From Oscillospiraceae bacterium (lineage in GTDB: Bacteria > Bacillota > Clostridia > Oscillospirales > CAG-272), in contig CP091718.1 in the NCBI GenBank assembly GCA_022009675.1, positions 1,373,520-1,437,519 of the forward strand: DNA of 64,000 bases, read 5' to 3'. Positions 2 to 37,268 of the stretch are shown piece after piece. The notes beneath the pieces were generated by a model, which was given only the letters and a program-made list of their open reading frames with translations, searched no databases and had not been told where the DNA came from. The position numbers were made by a program, and so were the translations under genes. Position 1 is the stretch's first letter; each line of letters begins with the position of its first letter.

Positions 2-1870
2 CGCCGCTATTCCGACCTCGCCCTGCGCGAGGCGGCAGAGTGTACCGACTCGGTGCGCAAGGCAGAGCTGCTCAAGATTGCGGATGCCTGCGACCACGTC
101 CCTGCCCATCCGGCGCGTGATTTCCACGAGGCGTGCCAGGCGTTCTGGTTTGTCCAGCAGCTGTTGCAGCTGGAGTCCAGCGGGCACTCCATTTCGCCCG
201 GACGCTTCGATCAGTATATGTACCCCCTGTTCCGGCAGGGGATGGACGATGGCTCCCTGACGCTGGAAAAGGCGCAGGAACTGCTGGATTGCATCTGGGT
301 CAAGCTGAATGACCTGAATAAGGTGCGCGATGCTGCCTCCGCCGAGGGTTTTGCAGGCTACGGTCTGTTCCAGAACCTGATTGTCGGCGGACAGGACGAG
401 CAGGGCATGGATGTCACCAACGAGCTGTCCTATATGTGCCTGGAGGCTCAGCTGCACGTGCGGCTGCCCCAGCCGTCGCTGTCTATCCGTGTATGGAATC
501 TGACGCCGCACGCCCTGCTGATCAAGGCGGCATCGGTCACCCGCGAGGGTCTGGGTGTTCCCGCTTTCTACAACGACGAGGTTATCATTCCGTCCATGAT
601 GTCCCGCGGCTACACGCTGGAGGACGCACGGAATTACTGCATCATCGGTTGCGTGGAGCCGCAGGCGTGTGCAAAGACAGACGGCTGGCATGATGCCGCC
701 TTCTTCAACATGCTGCGCCCCCTGGAGCTGGTTTTCTCCAACGGCGTGGATAAGGGCGAGCAGATCGGTCCCCGCACCGGCGACGTTCTGAAAATGACTT
801 CCTTTGAGGAATTCTATAAGGCATACACCACGCAGGAGTCTGCGCTCATCGAGATGATGGTGCAGGCGGACAATGCGGTGGATGTGGCGCACGCGGTGCG
901 TTGCCCGCTGCCCTTTGAGTCCTGCCTGATCGACGACTGCATCAGTCGCGGTAAGAGCGTGCAGGAGGGCGGCGCGCACTACAACTTCACCGGACCGCAG
1001 GGCTTCGGTATCGCCAATGTGGCGGACTCGCTGGCTGTCGTGCGGGAGCTGGTCTTTGAGAAGAAGCTGGTCTCCATGGCAGAGCTGAAGCAGGCGCTGG
1101 CGGATAACTTCGGCAAGGGATATACCCCCAAGAAGGCAGGCGAGCTGACGGCAGCCGCCGCCACGCAGATGGACAAGCAGGGCGTGGATGTCAACGAGGA
1201 CATTATCCGGCGCCTGTACAACGGGTTCCGAACCAACAGTGCGGTGTCCGCCGAAAAGAAGGCACGCTACGAGGAGATCCTCAAGCTGATCGAGGGTGTG
1301 CCGAAGTACGGCAATGACCTGCCGGAGGTGGATATGTTCGCCCGGGAGATCGGACAGACCTATACCAAGCCTTTGCTGGCGCACACCAATCCGCGCGGCG
1401 GTATGTTCCATGCCGGGCTGTACCCGGTGTCCGCCAACGTGCCGCTGGGCTATGACACCGGCGCCTCGCCGGACGGCAGACTGGCAAATACGCCGATCGC
1501 CGACGGAGTCGGTCCTATGGCGGGACGCGACACGCACGGTCCCACAGCGACCGCCAACTCGGTGTCGCGCCTTGATTTGGGCGATGCCTCCAACGGCACC
1601 CTGCTGAATCAGAAATTCCATCCCTCCGCACTTGCCGGCGAGGCGGGACTGGAGAAATTTGTCGCCTACCTGCGCGGCTTCTTTGACCGCAAGGGTATGC
1701 ACGTGCAGTACAATGTCGTCTCCCGCGAGACTCTGCTGGACGCGCAGGCGCATCCCGAAAACTATAAGACGCTGGTCGTGCGGGTCGCGGGGTATTCCGC
1801 CCTGTTCACCACGCTGTCCCGTTCGCTGCAGGACGATATCATCAACCGTACCGAGCAGGCGGGACTGTAA
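2..1870 (+). CDS. Glycyl radical enzyme, PFL2 / B12-independent diol-dehydratase-like; N-terminus lies upstream of the window
   Basis: The frame is open from base 2 to TAA 1868-1870 (track ORF 53..1870). It has the thiyl loop IIGCVEPQ and the C-terminal glycyl-radical fingerprint VRVAGYSALF. The cognate activase and a BMC shell gene follow. Confidence 0.9.
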   Translation, partial: RRYSDLALREAAECTDSVRKAELLKIADACDHVPAHPARDFHEACQAFWFVQQLLQLESSGHSISPGRFDQYMYPLFRQGMDDGSLTLEKAQELLDCIWVKLNDLNKVRDAASAEGFAGYGLFQNLIVGGQDEQGMDVTNELSYMCLEAQLHVRLPQPSLSIRVWNLTPHALLIKAASVTREGLGVPAFYNDEVIIPSMMSRGYTLEDARNYCIIGCVEPQACAKTDGWHDAAFFNMLRPLELVFSNGVDKGEQIGPRTGDVLKMTSFEEFYKAYTTQESALIEMMVQADNAVDVAHAVRCPLPFESCLIDDCISRGKSVQEGGAHYNFTGPQGFGIANVADSLAVVRELVFEKKLVSMAELKQALADNFGKGYTPKKAGELTAAAATQMDKQGVDVNEDIIRRLYNGFRTNSAVSAEKKARYEEILKLIEGVPKYGNDLPEVDMFAREIGQTYTKPLLAHTNPRGGMFHAGLYPVSANVPLGYDTGASPDGRLANTPIADGVGPMAGRDTHGPTATANSVSRLDLGDASNGTLLNQKFHPSALAGEAGLEKFVAYLRGFFDRKGMHVQYNVVSRETLLDAQAHPENYKTLVVRVAGYSALFTTLSRSLQDDIINRTEQAGL

Positions 1871-1949: not shown

Positions 1950-2762
1950 ATGAAGGAATTGGATCATGATGGAAAACGTATACGACCAGACCGGTCGGAT
2001 TTTTTTGATATACAGCGCTACTCCCTGCATGACGGTCCCGGTATCCGCACCATCGTTTTCTTCAAGGGATGTCATCTGCGCTGTCGCTGGTGCTGCAACC
2101 CGGAGTCGCAGGAGTACGGCATCCAGACCATGAACATGAACGGCACGACCAAAACGGTCGGGCGCGATGTGACGGTCCGGGAACTGATGAGCGACTTGGA
2201 AAAGGATCGCGTGTACTACGAGCGCTCCGGCGGCGGTATCACGCTGTCCGGCGGCGAATGTATGGCACAGCCGGATTTCGCCGAGGCACTCCTGATTGCG
2301 TGCCATCGGTACGGCTTGACGACTGCCATTGAAACGACGGCATTTGCCGATCGAGCCGTGGTGGAGCGCCTGATCCCGCACGTGGACTATGTGCTGATGG
2401 ATATCAAGCACATGGATCCCGACAAGCACCGGGCGTTTACGGGGCAATCCAACTAGCAGATACTGTCCAACGCCCGCTGGATAGCGGAGCACGCCGCCAG
2501 CCTGACTATCCGCGTGCCGACCATTCCCACCTTCAACGCTACAGAGGAGGAGATCACTGCCATCGCCCGCTTTGCGGCATCCCTGCCCGGCGTGCGTGCG
2601 CTGCATCTGCTCCCCTACCACCGTCTGGGGCAGGATAAGTACGCCGGCATCGGACGCGAATACACCCTTGCGTCGCTGACGCCGCCGACAAACGAGCAGA
2701 TGGCAGCGCTCAAAGCCGCCGCCGAGGCAGTTTCGCATCTGCACGTGCAGATCGGCGGCTGA
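1950..2762 (+). CDS. Glycyl-radical enzyme activating protein (radical SAM); frame interrupted by one in-frame TAG at 2454-2456
   Basis: Motifs DIQRYSLHDGPGIRT, CHLRCRWC (CX3CX2C cluster) and LLPYHRLG. ORFs 1632..2456 and 2514..2762 are in the same frame, and activase-like sequence continues across the TAG. An alternative ATG at 1966 (MMENVYDQTGRIF) would join the frame through the T7 run at 2000-2006. Confidence 0.85.
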
Positions 2763-2828
2763 ACAGACGGGGAACCGACGAAAAACAGAGCCGCCTGAAT
2801 ATGCGGCTTCCGACGGGAGGAATACTCT

Positions 2829-3197
2829 ATGCAGGATTTTGAACTCAAAGATAAGATGCGGATAGTCCAGGAGCTGGTGCCCGGTCGGCAGATTACGCTC
2901 CTGCATATCATCGCCAATCCGGATCCTATCCTGTATCAGAAACTGGGACTTGACCCCCGGCTGGATTACTCGCACTCCGCCATCGGGGTGCTGACCGTCA
3001 GCCCTGCCGAGACGGCTGTCATCACGGCGGATATCTCCATGAAGACAGCCAACGTGGAGCTGGGCTTTGTGGACCGTTTTTCCGGTACGCTGATACTCAC
3101 CGGACGTGTGGCGGAGGTGGAATCTGCCTTTCAGCATATCGCGGATTACTTCCGGGATAAGCTGCACTTCACGGTCTGCGAGCTGACCCGCACCTGA
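2829..3197 (+). CDS. BMC shell protein, circularly permuted BMC domain (EutS/PduU family)
   Basis: 122 aa. RIVQELVPGRQITLLHIIANP...GVLTVSPAETAVITADISMKTANVELGFVDRFSGTLILTG...FTVCELTRT matches my recollection of EutS/PduU. Confidence 0.85.
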   Translation: MQDFELKDKMRIVQELVPGRQITLLHIIANPDPILYQKLGLDPRLDYSHSAIGVLTVSPAETAVITADISMKTANVELGFVDRFSGTLILTGRVAEVESAFQHIADYFRDKLHFTVCELTRT

Positions 3198-3214
3198 CAG
3201 GAAGGCTGCCCGGC

Positions 3215-3727
3215 ATGAAGAAGCTGATTCTCATGGGGCGCGTGGCGGCTGGCAAGACTACCCTGACGCAGGCACTCAAGGGCGAGCAGCTGCACTACTG
3301 CAAGACCCAGTATATCAATTACTACGACACCATCATTGACACCCCCGGTGAGTATACCGAGGTTCATGCGCTGGGGGCGGCGCTTGCCGTCTACTCCTAT
3401 GAGGCGGACGTGGTCGGCATCGTCATCAGTGCGAACGAGCCGTTCTGCGTTTTTCCTCCCGGCTGTGCCGCCATGGTCAACCGGGACGTGATCGGCATTG
3501 TCACAGGAATCGACAAGCCGGATGCCAACGTGCCGCAGGCAACCCGCTGGCTGGAGCTGTGCGGGTGCCACCGGATATTCTACATCAGCTCCTACACCGG
3601 TCAGGGGCTGTCGGACATCATGGATTACCTCCGGGAGCCGGGAGACGCGCCGGCACAGCTGCAGACGGCATCCCCGGAGGACAGTGCATCCCGTAATACA
3701 CCGAAAGGACAGGAACGCCATGCGTGA
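3215..3727 (+). CDS. EutP/PduV-family small GTPase
   Basis: P-loop MGRVAAGKTTL, DTPGEY, and overall EutP/PduV layout. Lies directly downstream of the shell gene. Confidence 0.85.
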   Translation: MKKLILMGRVAAGKTTLTQALKGEQLHYCKTQYINYYDTIIDTPGEYTEVHALGAALAVYSYEADVVGIVISANEPFCVFPPGCAAMVNRDVIGIVTGIDKPDANVPQATRWLELCGCHRIFYISSYTGQGLSDIMDYLREPGDAPAQLQTASPEDSASRNTPKGQERHA

Positions 3728-4547
3728 CACGAGCAAGACCCCCGTACCAACCCCGACTACGGTTATCTGCTTCGCCAACAATAAAGGCGGAAGCGGCAAG
3801 TCCACGACCTGTTGCAACATCGGCTACAGTCTGGCGTCTGAGGGAAAGCGAGTTCTGCTGATCGACGGCGATATGCAGATGAATCTCACGCTGTCCTTGT
3901 TTGACGACGAGACCTCTCTGGAGTTTGCCCGCGGCGGGAACAACCTGTATACCGCCGTCAGGGAACAGCGCGACCTGACGCCGTACATACGCCAGACCCC
4001 CTACGAGGGGCTGGATCTGATTCCGTCCTCCACGCTGATGAGCGGCATTGAATTCGACCTGTTCACCAAATGGCAGAGGGAATTCATCCTCCGGCAGGGG
4101 CTGGAGAAAATCCGCAGCTCGGGTGAGTACGATTACATCCTGATTGATTCTCCCCCTACGTTGGGTTGCTGGGTCATGAATATTCTCTGCGCATCGGACT
4201 TTCTCATCGTGCCCGTGGAGGCGTCGCCGTGGGGGCTGTTCGGCCTTGCCAATATGTTTGAGTTCTGTGAGCAGGTCCGGAAAATATCCCCTTCGCTGAC
4301 CATCCTCGGCGTTGCCGTGACCAAGGTCAACGAACGCAAGAACTACTTCCGGCAGACGGTCGATGTGCTGACCGACATGGAGGAGGAGCGCGGCATCCAT
4401 CTGTTCCGCAACTACGTCCGGGTGGACAGCAGTGTGGAGCACGCGCAGGATGACAGCAAGCCCGTGATGGCGTACAAGCGCACCAGCCGGGCGGCTCTTG
4501 AATATCTGGCGTTAGCCAAGGAGGTAATGGAATATGCCCATCGGTAA
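3720..4547 (+). CDS. ParA/MinD-family ATPase (McdA-like candidate)
   Basis: Deviant Walker A NNKGGSGKST, plus LLIDGDMQ and DYILIDSPP. The ATG at 3720 overlaps the upstream stop at 3725-3727. Confidence 0.85.
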   Translation: MRDTSKTPVPTPTTVICFANNKGGSGKSTTCCNIGYSLASEGKRVLLIDGDMQMNLTLSLFDDETSLEFARGGNNLYTAVREQRDLTPYIRQTPYEGLDLIPSSTLMSGIEFDLFTKWQREFILRQGLEKIRSSGEYDYILIDSPPTLGCWVMNILCASDFLIVPVEASPWGLFGLANMFEFCEQVRKISPSLTILGVAVTKVNERKNYFRQTVDVLTDMEEERGIHLFRNYVRVDSSVEHAQDDSKPVMAYKRTSRAALEYLALAKEVMEYAHR

Positions 4548-4948
4548 AGACAGTATCCGGAAGCGCGTTATCGGTTCGGACTGCGCCGCCTGCGGCGAGT
4601 GTACGGACAAGGCGCCGCTGGCAGAGAAGACCACCGTGTCGGAGCGCGCTCCGCTGGCAGGCAAGGCACCCGCCGCCGGGAATGCGCCCGCCGGGCAGGC
4701 GCCCGTCCGCCGTTCGCCCGGCAGACCGCGCAAAAACGCCTCAGACACAGACCGCCGCGTCCGGCTCGGTTGTACCGGCGCAGTCGGCTCCGGCGCCGGC
4801 TCAGAAGCCCGCGTCCGCGCCTGCCGTCACGGAATCCGTGCTGACCAATGTTTCCCCCGAGGTGGTGGAAAAGGTGACCGGACACGCGGAAGGTGCGACC
4901 TCTGACCACGTGCAGATCACAGACAGAATGCCGGATTACCTGCTGTGA
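4534..4948 (+). CDS. Small basic/Pro-Ala-rich ParA-partner candidate; needs one frame change (about the A5 run 4732-4736)
   Basis: The ATG at 4534 lies inside the parA 3' end. The N-terminus is MPIGKDSIRKRVIGSDCAACGEC (frame of ORF 4534..4905). The C-terminus, ...APAQKPASAPAVTESVLTNVSPEVVEKVTGHAEGATSDHVQITDRMPDYLL, is in the frame of ORF 4682..4948 and stops just before the terminator. Confidence 0.4.
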
Positions 4949-6842
4949 ATCTCCGGCGGGAAAAAGGGTGTTAAAAAAACTCGTGCAGAGTTTTTTAACA
5001 CCTTTTTGCGCTTCCATGCCGTTACCGTATCGGCAGCCAGCTTTGCAAAACTGCCGCCGTCCCAACCGGAGCCGGCGGACATATAGTCCACCAATGTGAG
5101 CGTTTCGCCGCCCACCTGCAGGTGCGCGGTCAAAAGCCCCGGACGTTCCGGCAGCTCCACGCGCCAGTCCCCGATCCCGGCATCCGGAACCGGCGCAAGC
5201 GGATCGGCACAATCGCGGCTGTCGCGCGCCAGCAGAATGGGACCGTAGGTAAAGGCAACGAATCCGTCACCCGCGCGGTCACTGCCGTGCGGGGCGGCGT
5301 GCCGGATCGGGGAGTAGTCCAGCGAAATAATGAACTCATCCCCGTCGGACACGGTATCGGCTATGCGCAGGTAGGTGCCCGGCACGCCGGTCAGCATCCG
5401 TGTGGGATCGCCGCCCGGCAGGACGGCGAAATGCTCCGCATAGCCGGGTACGCGCAGATCCAGCGCAAGCGGCGTCCCGGCGGGCAGGTCGCCTGCTTCG
5501 ATTGTCAGCCGGGCGTACCCGACGCGCGGAAACTCGGACTGCATGGACAGCACCACCTGCCCGCCCGGAACCGGAACGCGGGCGCATCCCGTCATGTACA
5601 GGTTGACGGCAACGCCGTCCGGCGTGCCCGCAAAGGCGATATCAGGTGCCAACGCCAGCCCGGTCGGACCGTTGGCGGTACAGCAGGACAGGTCAAAGCC
5701 TTTGATGTTGAAGGAATAATTGACGCGCGGGTTCCGTGCTCCGTTGAAGCGCGGGAAGTATTCAAAGAAGGCGCCGTCCGGGCGGAGCGCACCGAAAATG
5801 GCGTTATACAGACTGACCTCCATGGCGTCCGCGTACCGGACTTCCCCCGTCAGCCGCAGGAGCTGGTGGCACAGCCGCATCCAGTACACCGTCACGCAGG
5901 TTTCCATCATCAAATCAATGGCAGGGTTGGTCTGCTCCAGACGGGTCCGATTCCACTGTTCCCCGGTTCCGGGACCGAGATTGAAGGGCGCATCCGCCCC
6001 GCCGGAGCCGAGCAGTGTGATCTCCTCCTCCCTGACCTTGTCCCAGAACAGCCTGACCGTTTCCAGGTCGCGCGCATCACCCGTCGCCCGGTAATACTCG
6101 CACAGACCTTCAAAGCAGGACATCATCTCGTATGCCTTTGCGATACTCTCGCGCGGATTCCCGTTGTCCCCGATCCGGTATGGCGATTTCCTGCCCGGAT
6201 TGCTTCAAAAATATTCTCGCGCCCGCAGCAGCCGCTCCGGACGATGTGCGTAGCCAGCTCCAGCGCCGCCGGTTCCCCGGTCGCGTGGTATACCCGCATG
6301 ACAGGTTCCAGGATGGAGGAGGATTCAATACCGCAGAATGCCCATCCCGTTTCGGTGATGGGTGTCCGGGGCGGGTCACCGACCTGCGCATTGGTGTAGC
6401 GCACCAGCCGGACGCAGGCATCCAGCGCCGCCGCGGAGCCGGACAGCTCATAGTAGGAGAGCAACCCCATCAGTGCATACTTGCGCTCCCACAGGTCGGA
6501 GCCGTGCGTGCCCTGTGGCTGGAGTGCATCCGGAACGGTGGATAGACATCCGTCCGGTCGCTGAATGCCCATCATGTCGGCGGCAGAATCGTCCACGATG
6601 CGCCGCAGGTCAGCATCGCCGGTGTAGGCGCACAGCATGCACGCGGCACGCATCAGCTTGCCCCAGAACTCGCCGGTGGCGAACTGGTCGGCGGTGTTGC
6701 GGAAATAATCCGCCAACGCCCGCATATCAATCCTTTTGAGCGTGCCCTCGCACACAAGGCGGATCTTGCTGTCCGCCGGACCGTCCAGCCGGACGCATCC
6801 TGCGCCGAGAGAAAACTGTCTGTCTGTGGAATGCCGGATCAT
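4936..6842 (-). CDS. GH127/DUF1680-family glycoside hydrolase (beta-L-arabinofuranosidase-like), split by frame breaks
   Basis: ORFs 6123..6842 and 4936..6126 join as ...IGDNGNPRESIAKAYEMMSCFEGL, with a break near 6165-6175. The E-x-C (METCVT) and CC (DLSCCTANG) motifs are typical of the GH127 Zn site. The natural end is probably ...WLPIR-TAA at 5022-5024, because the listed ORF reads through the terminator. Confidence 0.7.
4961..5007. terminator. Bidirectional rho-independent terminator between convergent genes
   Basis: aaaaagggtgttaaaaaaactc / gtgca / gagttttttaacaccttttt: a long stem flanked by an A-run and a T-run. Confidence 0.7.
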
Positions 6843-10832: not shown

Positions 10833-12025
10833 ACGGCACCCCGGTTTGCGGAGCCGCAGAACACGCCGCCGCACATGACCTGCGCGGGGGTTCCGTCGGC
10901 GTTCAGAATCAGCAGGTCGGCGCGCTTGCCCGGCTCCAGCGAGCCGATCTCGTGCTCCAGCCCGACCTCTATGGCAGGTGCCATGGTTGCGGCGTACACC
11001 GCCGTCCCGAAGCTGACGCCGGCAAAGGCGGCGTAATTCCGCACGCCGTCCAGCAGGGAGAGGGTGCTTCCGGCGATTGCACCGTCGTGCGTGCGTGCCT
11101 TGCCGTCCTTCACCGTGACGGGCATCCCGGCGATCCGATACTCGCCGTCCGGGCAACCGGTTGCCTCCATGGAATCGGTTATCAGCACCAGCCGCTCCCG
11201 CTTGAGCGTTGCCGCCAGCCTGACCATCTCCGGGGCGATATGGAACCCGTCGCAGATCAGTTCACAGGAGATGTCCGGTGACAGCAGTGCCGCGCAGACC
11301 GCACCGCCCGCCCGATGATGCAGGGGCGGCAGGGCGTTAGTACAGGTGCGTGACAGCGGTTGCGCCGTCGGCGAACGCCCGCATTGCCTGCTCGTAGGTT
11401 GCCATTGAATGCCCGAGACCTACGGTCGCGCCGCAGGACAGAGCCCGCCGGAGAAAGCTGCCGTCGGCATCCAGTTCCAGTGCAGCCGTCACGTGCCGCA
11501 CGCCCGGCATGGCACGGAGGAAGCCCTCCAGCTCATCCGCATCCAGGGGTGCCAGCAGCTCCGGCGCGTGGGCGCCGCGCTTGGCGGGGTTCAGGTACCG
11601 CCCCTCCAGATGGACACCCGCAATGTGTGCCCGCCGACCGGCAAGCGAGGGATCGCTTTCCTGCGCCGCCGTCTCGCCGATGCGCCGGATGGCTTCACGG
11701 AGCGCTGTCGGCTCCGCCGATGCCAGCGTCGGAAGAACCGTTGTCACGCCGGAGGCAAGGTAGCTTGCCAGCATCTGCTCCAGCATGGCACCGTCAGCGG
11801 AGCCGAAATCCCCGCCTGCCCTGCCATGGGTGTGTATATCCACCAGTCCCGGCAGGACAGTCCGCCCGCCGACGTCCAGTACGGCACCGTCAGGCAGTTT
11901 TTTTCCCTGCGCGCGGAGATGCCGCGCGAGACCTCCGCAATGCGTCCGCCCTCAAGGAGCAGATCACCGCGAAAGAATCCGCGCGCGGCGGCATCATATA
12001 TAGCAGCGTTTGCAATCAGCAGCAT
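10829..12025 (-). CDS. nagA: N-acetylglucosamine-6-phosphate deacetylase, broken into three ORFs
   Basis: Motifs LPGLVDIHTHGRAGGDF, HLEGRYLNP, THLY|NALPPLHHR and LITDSMEA. One frame break is at 11337-11340 (an extra T creates TAA); another is near 11890-11915. Confidence 0.8.
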
Positions 12026-12335
12026 AAATAACGGCACCCTTTTCCTGCATTTCTGTCCGTCCCGGACAGCCTGCGGCATTCAGTCCCTTCATTATAGCAG
12101 ATATTCACCTTTTTTTCAAGAGGAAATCATGTTTTTCTGCGGAAACAACACTTGCTTTTTTTGCTTCGCGGTAACGGGCGGAACCGGCGCCGTCAGGCAG
12201 GCAAAATCCGAAGGCTGCATGACTGTCCGGCAGCGCGCAGAAATTGCGCTGACAAATTCCATAAAAAGGTATTTACAAAACCGGCGCCGTATGGTAAAAA
12301 TAGGTACAACGTAAGGGAAGGAGGTGCGGGAACCC

Positions 12336-13152
12336 ATGAGACTGGACAAATTTCTGAGCCTGTGCGGCAAGGCAAGCCGGAGCGAAACGCTTCGTTCCGT
12401 CCGCCGCGGAGAGATAACAGTCAACGGGGTGCCTGCCCGACGGGGCGATTGCCCGGTGGAGCCGGACACGGACACGGTTGTGTTCCGGGGCGAAACCGTC
12501 GTGTACCGACCGTACACCTACGTCATGCTCCACAAGCCGGACGGAGTGGTCAGTGCTACCGAGGACAGGCTGGCAGGGGAGCCGACGGTGCTGGATCTGC
12601 TCCCGCCGGAGCTGACGCGCCTGCGGCCGGGGCTGTTTCCCTGCGGGCGGCTGGACAAACATACAACGGGACTCATGCTGCTGACCAACAACGGCAAGCT
12701 GGCGCACCGCCTGCTGTCGCCGGCACGCCATGTGGATAAAAACCTATGCCTTTACGGTGAAGTTTCCGCTGTCGGCGGAGGATGTTGCCGCACTGGAGTC
12801 CGGCGTGAGCCTCCGGAACGCGGACGGCGGTACGGACTGCGTAACGGTTCCCTGCCGCGTGGAGCTGACGGACTGCACCGGCAGGGGTGCCGCCGGGCGC
12901 ATCACCCTGCACGAGGGCAAGTACCACCAGATCAAGCGCATGATGGAGGCGCGGCACAATCAGATAACCTCGCTCGCGCGCCTGACCTTCGGTCCGCTGG
13001 TGCTGGATCCCGCGCTCGCGCCCGGCGCGTGGCGCCTGCTGACCGACGCCGAGACGGCGGCACTGGAGAACTGCGGCGGCGCGGATACAGGAGCACCTGC
13101 CGACGCGACCGACGTTTCCACAGCTTCCCGGAATACGGAAAAAGATAAATAA
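12336..13152 (+). CDS. Pseudouridine synthase, RsuA/RluB family with an S4 domain; one frame break near 12738-12745
   Basis: MRLDKFL S4 start, catalytic GRLDKHTTGLMLLTNNG, and HEGKYHQIKRMM. ORFs 12324..13148 and 12730..13152 together cover the gene. Confidence 0.8.
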
Positions 13153-26452: not shown

Positions 26453-26526
<74 letters not shown>

Positions 26527-26530
26527 ATAT

Positions 26531-26607
<77 letters not shown>

Positions 26608-26670
26608 TCCCGGCACGCCGCAGGTGTTCGGGCAGGAGCTCTCGCGTTCCGCGGATTTTGTTTCCCCTAT

Positions 26671-26748
26671 GGTGGGTATAGCTCAGTTGGTTAGGGCGCC
26701 AGGTTGTGGCCCTGGAGGTCAAGGGTTCGAATCCCTCTACTCACCCCA
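26671..26748 (+). tRNA. tRNA-His (anticodon GTG) with G-1, CCA encoded
   Basis: An extra 5' G pairs with C73. Anticodon arm CCAGG-TTGTGGC-CCTGG, T-loop TTCGAAT. Confidence 0.9.
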
Positions 26749-37075: not shown

Positions 37076-37106
37076 AAAAAATCCCGCACACAGGTGCGGG
37101 ATTTTT
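37076..37106. terminator. Bidirectional terminator (ends the minus-strand tRNA operon)
   Basis: aaaaa-atcccgcac / acag / gtgcgggat-tttt. Confidence 0.7.
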
Positions 37107-37190
37107 GGTGGGGGATGGTGGGTTCGGACCACCGAAGTCAGAGACAACAGATTTACAGTCTGCCCCCTTTGGCCACTCGGGAAATCCCCC
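37106..37190 (-). tRNA. tRNA-Tyr (anticodon GTA), long variable arm, CCA encoded
   Basis: The reverse complement is GGGGGAT...GCAGA-CTGTAAA-TCTGT...ATCCCCC-A-CCA, 85 nt. The T-loop reads TCCGAAC, which is atypical at position 55. Confidence 0.8.
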
Positions 37191-37193
37191 ATA

Positions 37194-37268
37194 TGGAGCT
37201 GGTGAACGGAGTCGAACCATCAACCTGCTGATTACAAATCAGCTGCTCTGCCATTGAGCCACACCAGC
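37194..37268 (-). tRNA. tRNA-Thr (anticodon TGT), CCA encoded
   Basis: The reverse complement is GCTGGTG...GCTGA-TTTGTAA-TCAGC...TTCGACT...CACCAGC-T-CCA, 75 nt. Confidence 0.9.

Follow-up and report, generated by a model that had tools for sequence, protein, structure and literature searches.

The window analysed here is a 64,000-nt stretch of the genome of an Oscillospiraceae bacterium (GenBank assembly GCA_022009675.1, contig CP091718.1, positions 1,373,520 to 1,437,519 of the forward strand), and it opens with the 3′ end of a glycyl-radical enzyme microcompartment (GRM) locus. The last two genes of this locus, both on the + strand, encode a ParA/Soj-type deviant Walker A ATPase of 275 aa (3720..4547) and a small, largely disordered partner (4534..4948), which is 137 aa long once one A is removed from an A5 homopolymer. 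The pair is probably a dedicated module of the McdA/McdB-like kind, with two genes that would organise a glycyl-radical 1,2-propanediol-dehydratase microcompartment in space.

The positioning hypothesis is not itself new. That GRM, PDU and EUT operons can be accompanied by McdA/McdB-like genes, with Tyr or Phe taking the place of the C-terminal McdB tryptophan, is a bioinformatic prediction (PMC8359340 section 2.9; PMC8262871; PMC11321042 Fig. 4) that has been reported since 2021 and is cited by a 2025 review (PMC13052382). No experimental characterisation of such pairs was found in the literature searched, and the bacterial microcompartment (BMC) catalogue paper contains no text on ParA. An earlier note on this DNA had proposed a dedicated positioning or inheritance module; the linkage to GRM loci and the adaptor architecture that it relied upon are supported, the idea was already in print, and positioning itself is predicted from these features. 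Since pairs of this kind beside GRM/PDU operons were already published as a prediction, the value of our analysis is incremental rather than conceptual. What is new is the delimitation of one family by its strict linkage, clade restriction, universal 14-nt coupling, Y/F/H tail, divergent ParA motifs and FtsK-gamma variants.

The linkage of the pair to EutS-EutP at the end of GRM loci is near-absolute. An alignment of the partner was searched against one genome per GTDB species (185,579 species) and revealed the gene in 60 species genomes, all of them gut metagenome-assembled genomes (MAGs), from animals and humans, that belong to uncultured Clostridia, Oscillospiraceae or Eubacteriales. Using tblastn on these loci, we found ParA directly upstream of the partner, with a 14-nt overlap, in 60/60 cases, and EutP directly upstream of ParA in every one of the 56 loci that reached far enough; a glycyl-radical enzyme (GRE) and its activase lay upstream of the pair in 43 of 45 loci. 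The co-occurrence with GRM loci downstream of EutS/EutP, proposed in the earlier note, is therefore borne out by the phylogenetic profile. In one of the exceptions (L060:1-7200), the activase-EutS-EutP-ParA-partner block is preceded not by a GRE but by glycerol-3-phosphate dehydrogenase, heparinase-like and sugar ABC transporter genes, and in the other (L051:1-994) no GRE is present within the 994 nt upstream of the block; these represent either a satellite arrangement or a MAG misjoin.

A separate metagenome scan returned 26 loci, many of them from the human gut, with ParA upstream of the partner in 25/25 of those having any upstream sequence. The same was true when we started from ParA homologues (P0001, P0003, P0009 and P0065), whose context was always EutS-EutP-ParA-small open reading frame (ORF), with a full GRM locus wherever the contig extended upstream. 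This constant EutS-EutP-ParA-partner order suggests a four-gene cassette for the compartment surface and its positioning. The genes downstream of the pair vary (GH127 in the window, PadR/DUF2812 in L001, a PRK-family kinase in L002 and MazE in L006), which indicates that the pair belongs to, and moves with, the GRM locus rather than the DNA on its other side. When 1.84 billion representative proteins were searched exhaustively by profile, 94 partner clusters only were recovered, and by these sequence searches the partner is a small, clade-restricted family.

The two genes are tightly joined. The ATG of the partner (4534) lies inside the 3′ end of parA, as the earlier note had observed, and is preceded at a distance of 9 nt by a Shine-Dalgarno sequence, AAGGAGG (4518..4524, + strand), that is itself within the parA coding sequence. 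The universal overlap and this strong Shine-Dalgarno sequence suggest that expression of ParA and its partner is coupled and possibly stoichiometric.

The ATPase is of the Soj/ParA class. It carries the deviant Walker A motif KGGSGKST, with its signature lysine, at residues 22-29, as previously read from the sequence, and this motif is invariant within its clade. Profile scores for AAA_31 (171 bits, 3e-50) and CbiA (69 bits, 5e-19) are both over the cut-offs, while no NCBIfam equivalog model was passed. The top PDB sequence matches are 8RAY ParA and HpSoj. An AlphaFold2 (AF2) model of the protein (pLDDT 82, pTM 0.85) was compared with known structures using Foldseek, returning Soj/ParA structures (TM 0.82-0.84) followed by Cyanothece McdA (0.75-0.78) and then MinD, FlhG and BcsQ, and the sequence searches rank Soj above McdA above MinD, as the structure search does. 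A MinD-like reading of the ATPase was rejected: its last helix (...LALAKEVMEYAHR) is of the usual Soj-like kind, and MinD structures rank below those of Soj and McdA. A MinE-like partner was also rejected, as the partner matches no family. The profile and structure comparison suggested in the earlier note thus identifies a Soj/ParA-like rather than MinD-like ATPase and a partner without a family.

Homologues of the ATPase number in the thousands, the best 120 of which form a tight group, mostly of 261-277 aa and ~70-99% identical to the protein in the window over the aligned stretch; one 357-aa entry, 64% identical, is an exception. Across the 60 species, identity to the ATPase of the window ranges from 63 to 94% over the matched stretch. 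The clade has two invariant motifs of its own (residues 49-57 and 234-243), with DMQMN in place of DPQGN and RxDSxxExxQ in place of IP(K/R)SV(K/R)LAE, and these replacements eliminate two conserved lysine positions of the DNA patch and ATP loop.

The partner has the architecture of a ParA adaptor, in which a flexible spacer separates a basic N-terminal peptide from a cargo motif at the C-terminus. The earlier note had described a disordered protein with a basic N-terminal peptide, and both features were recovered: in the AF2 model (mean pLDDT 55.6) the protein is disordered save for short helices at residues 6-13 and 108-114, and the charged residues K5, K10 and R11 of the N-terminus are conserved. 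All 60 species loci encode a partner beginning MPIGKDSIxxRV, and within the N-terminal peptide of the window, MPIGKDSIRKRVI (4534..4572, + strand), M1-I8 and K10-R11 are invariant in both family alignments. Over the first five codons of the partner, the same DNA also encodes the C-terminus of ParA (...YAHR*). Judging from the N-termini of ParB, Spo0J and McdB, we propose that the N-terminal peptide is a ParA-binding, ATPase-stimulating element.

At the other end, a conserved module of ~37 aa, VLTNVSPEVVEKVTGH...HVQITDRMPDYLL (4835..4945, + strand), has V, N, P, E, G, P and L columns that hardly vary and the highest pLDDT of the partner model (70-78). Its family form is V(M/L)xNVSPEVVEKVxGH...(V/I)xIxDxMPxΦLL, with a tail ending (M/L)PxΦL(L/M), where residue -3 (Φ) is Y in 29, F in 17, H in 13 and W in none of the 59 readable species sequences; the partner in the window has Tyr at -3 and Asp at -4 and -7. 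We propose this module as the microcompartment-binding end. The linker joining the two ends is variable and poorly conserved (~20-250 residues) and rich in Ala, Lys, Pro and Thr (50-80% A/K/P/T). Searches of the window partner against Pfam, NCBIfam and the PDB gave no family match, the sole hits being insignificant ones to uS19 (E ~0.13). The ORF is kept in 60 species genomes, with invariant termini and differing lengths among intact ORFs, and on this conservation it is far beyond a chance ORF.

Two further features to which the earlier note had drawn attention, a CAACGEC ferredoxin-like remnant and a GRPRK AT-hook, proved to be lineage-specific rather than features of the family. A CxxCxxC motif (CAACGEC, CEDCGSC or CAECGAC) is positioned right after the N-terminal peptide in the window (4579-4602, residues 16-23) and in P0165, P0171-P0173 and P0261; it is confined to one sub-lineage, is missing from most partners, and may be a metal site or functionless. 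GRP/RGR AT-hook-like motifs are present in 48/132 full-length family members, ruling out the AT-hook as a defining feature of the partner.

The organelle itself is most likely a GRM of the 1,2-propanediol-dehydratase type, as the GRE orthologue best matches a diol dehydratase: the full-length GRE orthologue in L001 has as its best PDB match the B12-independent 1,2-propanediol dehydratase of Roseburia inulinivorans (5I2A, 1142 bits), with glycerol dehydratase next and choline TMA-lyases at 483-567 bits. The full locus has the order alcohol dehydrogenase, several BMC-H, PduL, EutN, PduS-like flavoprotein, BMC-T, GRE, activase, EutS, EutP, ParA and small ORF. GRM gene content, with GRE and activase clustered with shell genes, was seen in L001-L003 and L074-L077, and gene calling in the stretches of these loci that were examined yielded neither Rubisco nor carbonic anhydrase.

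Putting these features together, we favour an McdAB-like system that would position GRM metabolosomes by a Brownian ratchet and keep them from aggregating, a reading that by analogy seems rather more probable than any other kind of function. It is favoured because the architecture of the partner matches the published descriptions of McdB and McdB-like proteins, in which the N-terminus is charged, the chain is disordered and biased in composition, and an acidic residue lies close to a C-terminal aromatic one (PMC8359340, PMC11321042). Under this model, a ParA-ATP dimer would bind a cellular matrix, most likely the nucleoid, and the disordered partner would attach to the compartment surface through its C-terminal amphipathic helix and (M/L)PxΦL(L/M) tail. 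The basic N-terminal peptide MPIGKDSIxxRV would contact ParA and trigger ATP hydrolysis, and local clearance of ParA would allow compartments to climb ParA gradients, stay apart and reach both daughters. The ATPase class and fold, the disorder and motifs of the partner, the 14-nt coupling and the genomic linkage to EutS-EutP come out of the analysis itself; DNA binding by ParA, the binding target of each end of the partner and the positioning outcome are what we infer.

The resemblance to McdA/McdB, especially the alpha-type system of Halothiobacillus neapolitanus, is one of layout and composition: a signature-lysine ParA is followed by a small gene in or next to a BMC operon, and the product of that gene is almost wholly disordered, of biased composition, charged at its N-terminus and provided with a C-terminal motif that has an aromatic among the final 4-5 residues and an acidic residue close to it. 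Going by their published description, non-carboxysome McdB-like proteins share Tyr/Phe with the GRM partner. The differences are also clear. The GRM partner has no detectable sequence similarity to McdB and no tryptophan in its last ~5 residues, with His in 13/59, and so fits the ‘McdB-like, non-carboxysome’ class (PMC11321042); its linker is lysine/alanine/proline-rich and occasionally contains an FtsK-gamma domain. The ATPase is closer to Soj than to the McdA of cyanobacteria whose structure is solved, the cargo is not a carboxysome but a catabolic metabolosome of the propanediol-dehydratase kind in anaerobic Clostridia, and the function of the GRM pair, unlike that of McdAB, is predicted from sequence.

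The pair can also be compared with other systems. Soj/ParA and Spo0J/ParB of Bacillus subtilis, Helicobacter pylori and Thermus thermophilus include the best matches of the ATPase (8RAY, 6IUB and 9A6N, TM 0.82-0.84), which like Soj is small, single-domain and without an N-terminal helix-turn-helix (HTH), and the N-terminal Lys/Arg peptide of the partner resembles the ParA-stimulating N-terminus of Spo0J. In contrast, the partner lacks the HTH and CTPase domains of ParB, no parS site is present, and the ATPase differs from Soj in its DMQMN and RxDSxxExxQ motifs and in three non-basic DNA-contact lysine positions. In the Pdu system, the homologues PduV/EutP and PduU/EutS correspond to the two genes directly upstream of the pair in every assessable locus, but no ParA is involved in the Pdu system of Salmonella or Citrobacter, and PduV/EutP is of a different P-loop family.

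Several observations weigh against the McdAB-like reading. In sequence, chromosomal Soj (E 1e-26 to 1e-32) is nearer to the ATPase than cyanobacterial McdA is (5e-12). The nonspecific-DNA-binding patch of HpSoj consists of four lysines, K199, K227, K230 and K247 (PMC6393308), and of these positions only one is basic in the GRM clade: the K199 position carries K/R, whereas Ser (99%), Glu (100%) and Thr stand at the positions of K227, K230 and K247, respectively. Conserved basic residues do occur near the mapped patch, on the same helices (K202, R206, K207, R234, K253, K254 and R257), making nucleoid binding by the clade plausible, although we count it as unproven because basic residues are lacking at three of the four canonical sites. 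The hallmark tryptophan of McdB is missing, its place being taken by Y/F in 46/59 and by His in 13/59 readable partner sequences, and every member of the family is known from uncultured MAGs. Finally, the mostly basic linker of the partner could mean a different division of labour between the two proteins.

This last point underlies an alternative in which the partner binds DNA via a basic, H1-like linker and anchors compartments to the chromosome, with ParA modulating or mobilising the tether and no longer acting as the sole part of the system to bind the nucleoid. The model for such an arrangement is PhaM of Ralstonia eutropha, an adaptor that joins PHB granules to the nucleoid and binds PHB synthase and has no dedicated ParA ATPase. 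The likeness lies in a lysine/alanine/proline-rich H1-like segment that could tie a protein-bounded inclusion to the nucleoid and so secure its inheritance; PhaM, unlike the GRM pair, needs no dedicated ParA, and DNA binding by the GRM partner would be a hypothetical extension. We regard a tether of this kind as unlikely, though not negligible. Net charge of the linker is positive in 105/132 full-length family members, which together with its A/K/P/T-rich composition, the AT-hook-like motifs and the missing basic residues of the ATPase would suit DNA binding by the partner, but in the other 27/132 the linker is neutral or acidic, down to -8. The histone H1-like HC2 profile of Pfam matches 25/116 partners (best E 1.7e-6), but these matches are weak, below the Pfam cut-off and of a low-complexity, compositional nature, and basic disordered regions of McdB have been tied to condensates and not to DNA binding (PMC11321042). 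An FtsK_gamma winged-helix domain is inserted in the linker of four partners (P0208, P0211, P0233 and P0280; 50-65 bits vs a cut-off of 30.6), all of which keep the terminal motifs, and P0208 (L069:10001-10696) and P0211 (L070:10001-10594) are confirmed in the same GRM-EutS-EutP-ParA context; such variants are rare, however. A further FtsK-gamma protein found with the P0211 query, P0343, was discarded as an unrelated prophage gene that matches the gamma domain only. A related possibility, about which we are similarly doubtful, is that the partner is a tripartite adaptor in which the N-terminal peptide controls ParA, the H1-like linker binds the nucleoid and the C-terminal motif binds the shell, DNA contact having at least partly moved from the ATPase to the adaptor. 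If true, a metabolic organelle would be tethered to the chromosome in a regulated way, mechanistically unlike the McdAB Brownian ratchet. A role of the pair in compartment biogenesis (shell closure, cargo condensation, EutS/EutP recruitment, or Fe-S/cofactor handling for the activase and PduS-like protein) appears improbable. The pair does adjoin the minor shell protein EutS and EutP and is co-transcribed with the enzymes, and the C-terminal helix VSPEVVEKV of the partner is amphipathic like encapsulation peptides (the PduL of the locus begins MELNAQSIEAIVRKVISGM). Also in favour of such a role are the CxxCxxC motif in a subset of partners and weak NifH and Mrp family matches of the ATPase, yet most members lack the motif, and the NifH, Mrp and ApbC matches span the P-loop region only and are far under the cut-offs (e.g. 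28 vs 450 bits). The layout of the partner is also that of a ParA adaptor, and we know of no ParA-family protein that acts as a BMC assembly factor.

Type Ib plasmid partition cassettes (ParA/ParF with ParG or omega-type ribbon-helix-helix (RHH) proteins) likewise consist of a ParA gene with a small overlapping gene behind it; in them a flexible basic N-terminal tail activates the ATPase, and the ATPase of the window is generically similar to partition ATPases. The pair could on these grounds be a plasmid-, phage- or integrative and conjugative element-derived ATPase and centromere-binding protein that lies beside the GRM operon by chance, but the synteny data effectively refute this: EutS-EutP precedes the pair in every assessable locus while the downstream flanks are variable. 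Among plasmid ParAs identity peaks at 40%, with no match of 60% or more in the 5000 best-scoring plasmid records, and no relative of the partner is encoded among 2.9 million viral contigs. Unlike type Ib systems, the GRM pair has no RHH dimer domain, nor does the partner have an HTH fold or family, and a search of 2700-5300 for parS- or iteron-like direct or inverted repeat arrays found chance-level repeats and a terminator only. None of the sequence-level findings that the earlier note had named as speaking against its reading was encountered: there is no plasmid or viral association, no ParB/RHH fold in the partner and no parS-like repeat.

The remaining alternative concerns the integrity of the module in this strain. 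As assembled, the partner ORF is split into two frames (4534-4905 and 4682-4948), and the frame change suspected near the A5 run at about 4732 could be traced to one extra A exactly there (4732..4736, + strand). A contig 98.6% identical to the window (L005) has A4 at this site and an uninterrupted 137-aa partner, as do four more conspecific contigs of 220-425 kb (L074-L077), and the intact protein is recorded in hundreds of contigs. Comparison of the window with the four independent conspecific assemblies revealed ~15 indels over 15 kb, nearly all of them A/T homopolymer length changes, and these also fall in intergenic DNA and unrelated genes. The activase gene has T7 at 2000-2006 where the four conspecific contigs have T5, with loss of frame after codon 13, and an in-frame TAG at 2454-2456 where relatives read GAG/GAA (Glu). 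A GH127 beta-L-arabinofuranosidase-like gene (4936-6842, - strand) is split by homopolymer indels at 6186 and 5042, while L005 and L074-L077 have it whole, at 606 aa. A further nine homopolymer indels are clustered at 11339-12738, some of them within an amidohydrolase gene, and a gene near 11.9 kb is likewise broken. The window assembly appears to carry systematic A/T homopolymer length errors. Given the intact conspecific contigs and the predominance of homopolymer length changes, the partner frameshift most probably arose in sequencing or assembly and is not biological, and the module should therefore be intact in the organism. We consider it distinctly unlikely that the lesions in the partner, activase and GH127 genes are instead real, pseudogenising mutations of a decaying strain. 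There are at least four disruptive lesions in 7 kb, and we retain this alternative because the GAG to TAG change at 2454 is a substitution and not a homopolymer indel; against it, the indels bear the signature of sequencing error, extending to intergenic DNA and to unrelated genes at 11.3-12.7 kb, and all of the conspecific contigs have intact genes.

On the McdAB-like reading, the family is of interest because the spacing and inheritance of catabolic microcompartments (Pdu, Eut and GRM) are largely open questions, the only characterised ParA-based system being that of carboxysomes. It offers a well-delimited candidate, with one tight ParA clade and one adaptor family with two sharp linear motifs, linked almost without exception to a GRM of the propanediol-dehydratase type in gut Clostridia that are abundant, one of them a common species of the human gut. 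The motifs define testable peptides, MPIGKDSIxxRV (MPIGKDSIRKRVIG) to probe stimulation of the ATPase and the (M/L)PxΦL(L/M) tail to probe attachment to the shell, and could serve as portable tags to organise engineered compartments.

The remainder of the operon in the window agrees with the earlier note (GRE, activase, EutS, EutP, ParA and small ORF), all of its coordinates and features having been verified. The GRE gene runs off the start of the window, leaving a C-terminal part of 622 codons (2..1870, + strand; Pfam PFL-like 3e-163, Gly_radical 1e-33), and is followed by its activating enzyme, a radical SAM protein (1966..2762, + strand) that is disrupted in the window and intact, at 264 aa, in L074-L077. 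Next is an EutS/PduU-type BMC shell protein of 122 aa (2829..3197, + strand; Pfam BMC 1.5e-13), for which the top NCBIfam model is EutS (NF012012, 1.3e-29), its 102.6 bits falling below the cut-off of 123; a gene of this type is also found directly 5′ of EutP in related loci. The EutP/PduV family P-loop protein (170 aa, 3215..3727, + strand) matches PF10662 (1.9e-49) and TIGR02528 (141 bits vs a cut-off of 138), and EutP is annotated as acetate kinase as well (NCBIfam NF012011).

The ParA ATG (3720) overlaps the EutP stop by 8 nt, on account of a C-terminal extension of ~20 residues (3650-3727) that makes the EutP of the window 170 aa long, as against 151 aa in most relatives. In most other species there is a gap of ~10-200 nt between EutP and ParA, the overlap being limited to the closest relatives; the ParA-partner overlap, in contrast, is universal.

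The unit closes at a hairpin (4961..5007) between the convergent partner and GH127 genes, which the earlier note had recognised as a strong bidirectional terminator. Its arms (4962-4978 and 4991-5007) are 17 nt each and 94% complementary, and folding returned -26.8 kcal/mol (z = -4.4), a value equalled by 0/200 shuffles. The hairpin is flanked by an A-run on its 5′ side and a T-run on its 3′ side and should therefore be able to terminate both convergent transcripts. A simple promoter/terminator scan missed this A/T-rich hairpin, which was recovered by folding and by a repeat search; in intact relatives, it sits within a 76-nt intergenic gap.

Rfam and tRNA scans of the whole window returned five tRNAs, which have no bearing on the pair, and no other Rfam family. 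The tRNAs form two clusters, one on the + strand at 26453-26748 (Gly-TCC, Arg-TCT and His-GTG) and the other on the - strand at 37106-37268 (Tyr-GTA and Thr-TGT).

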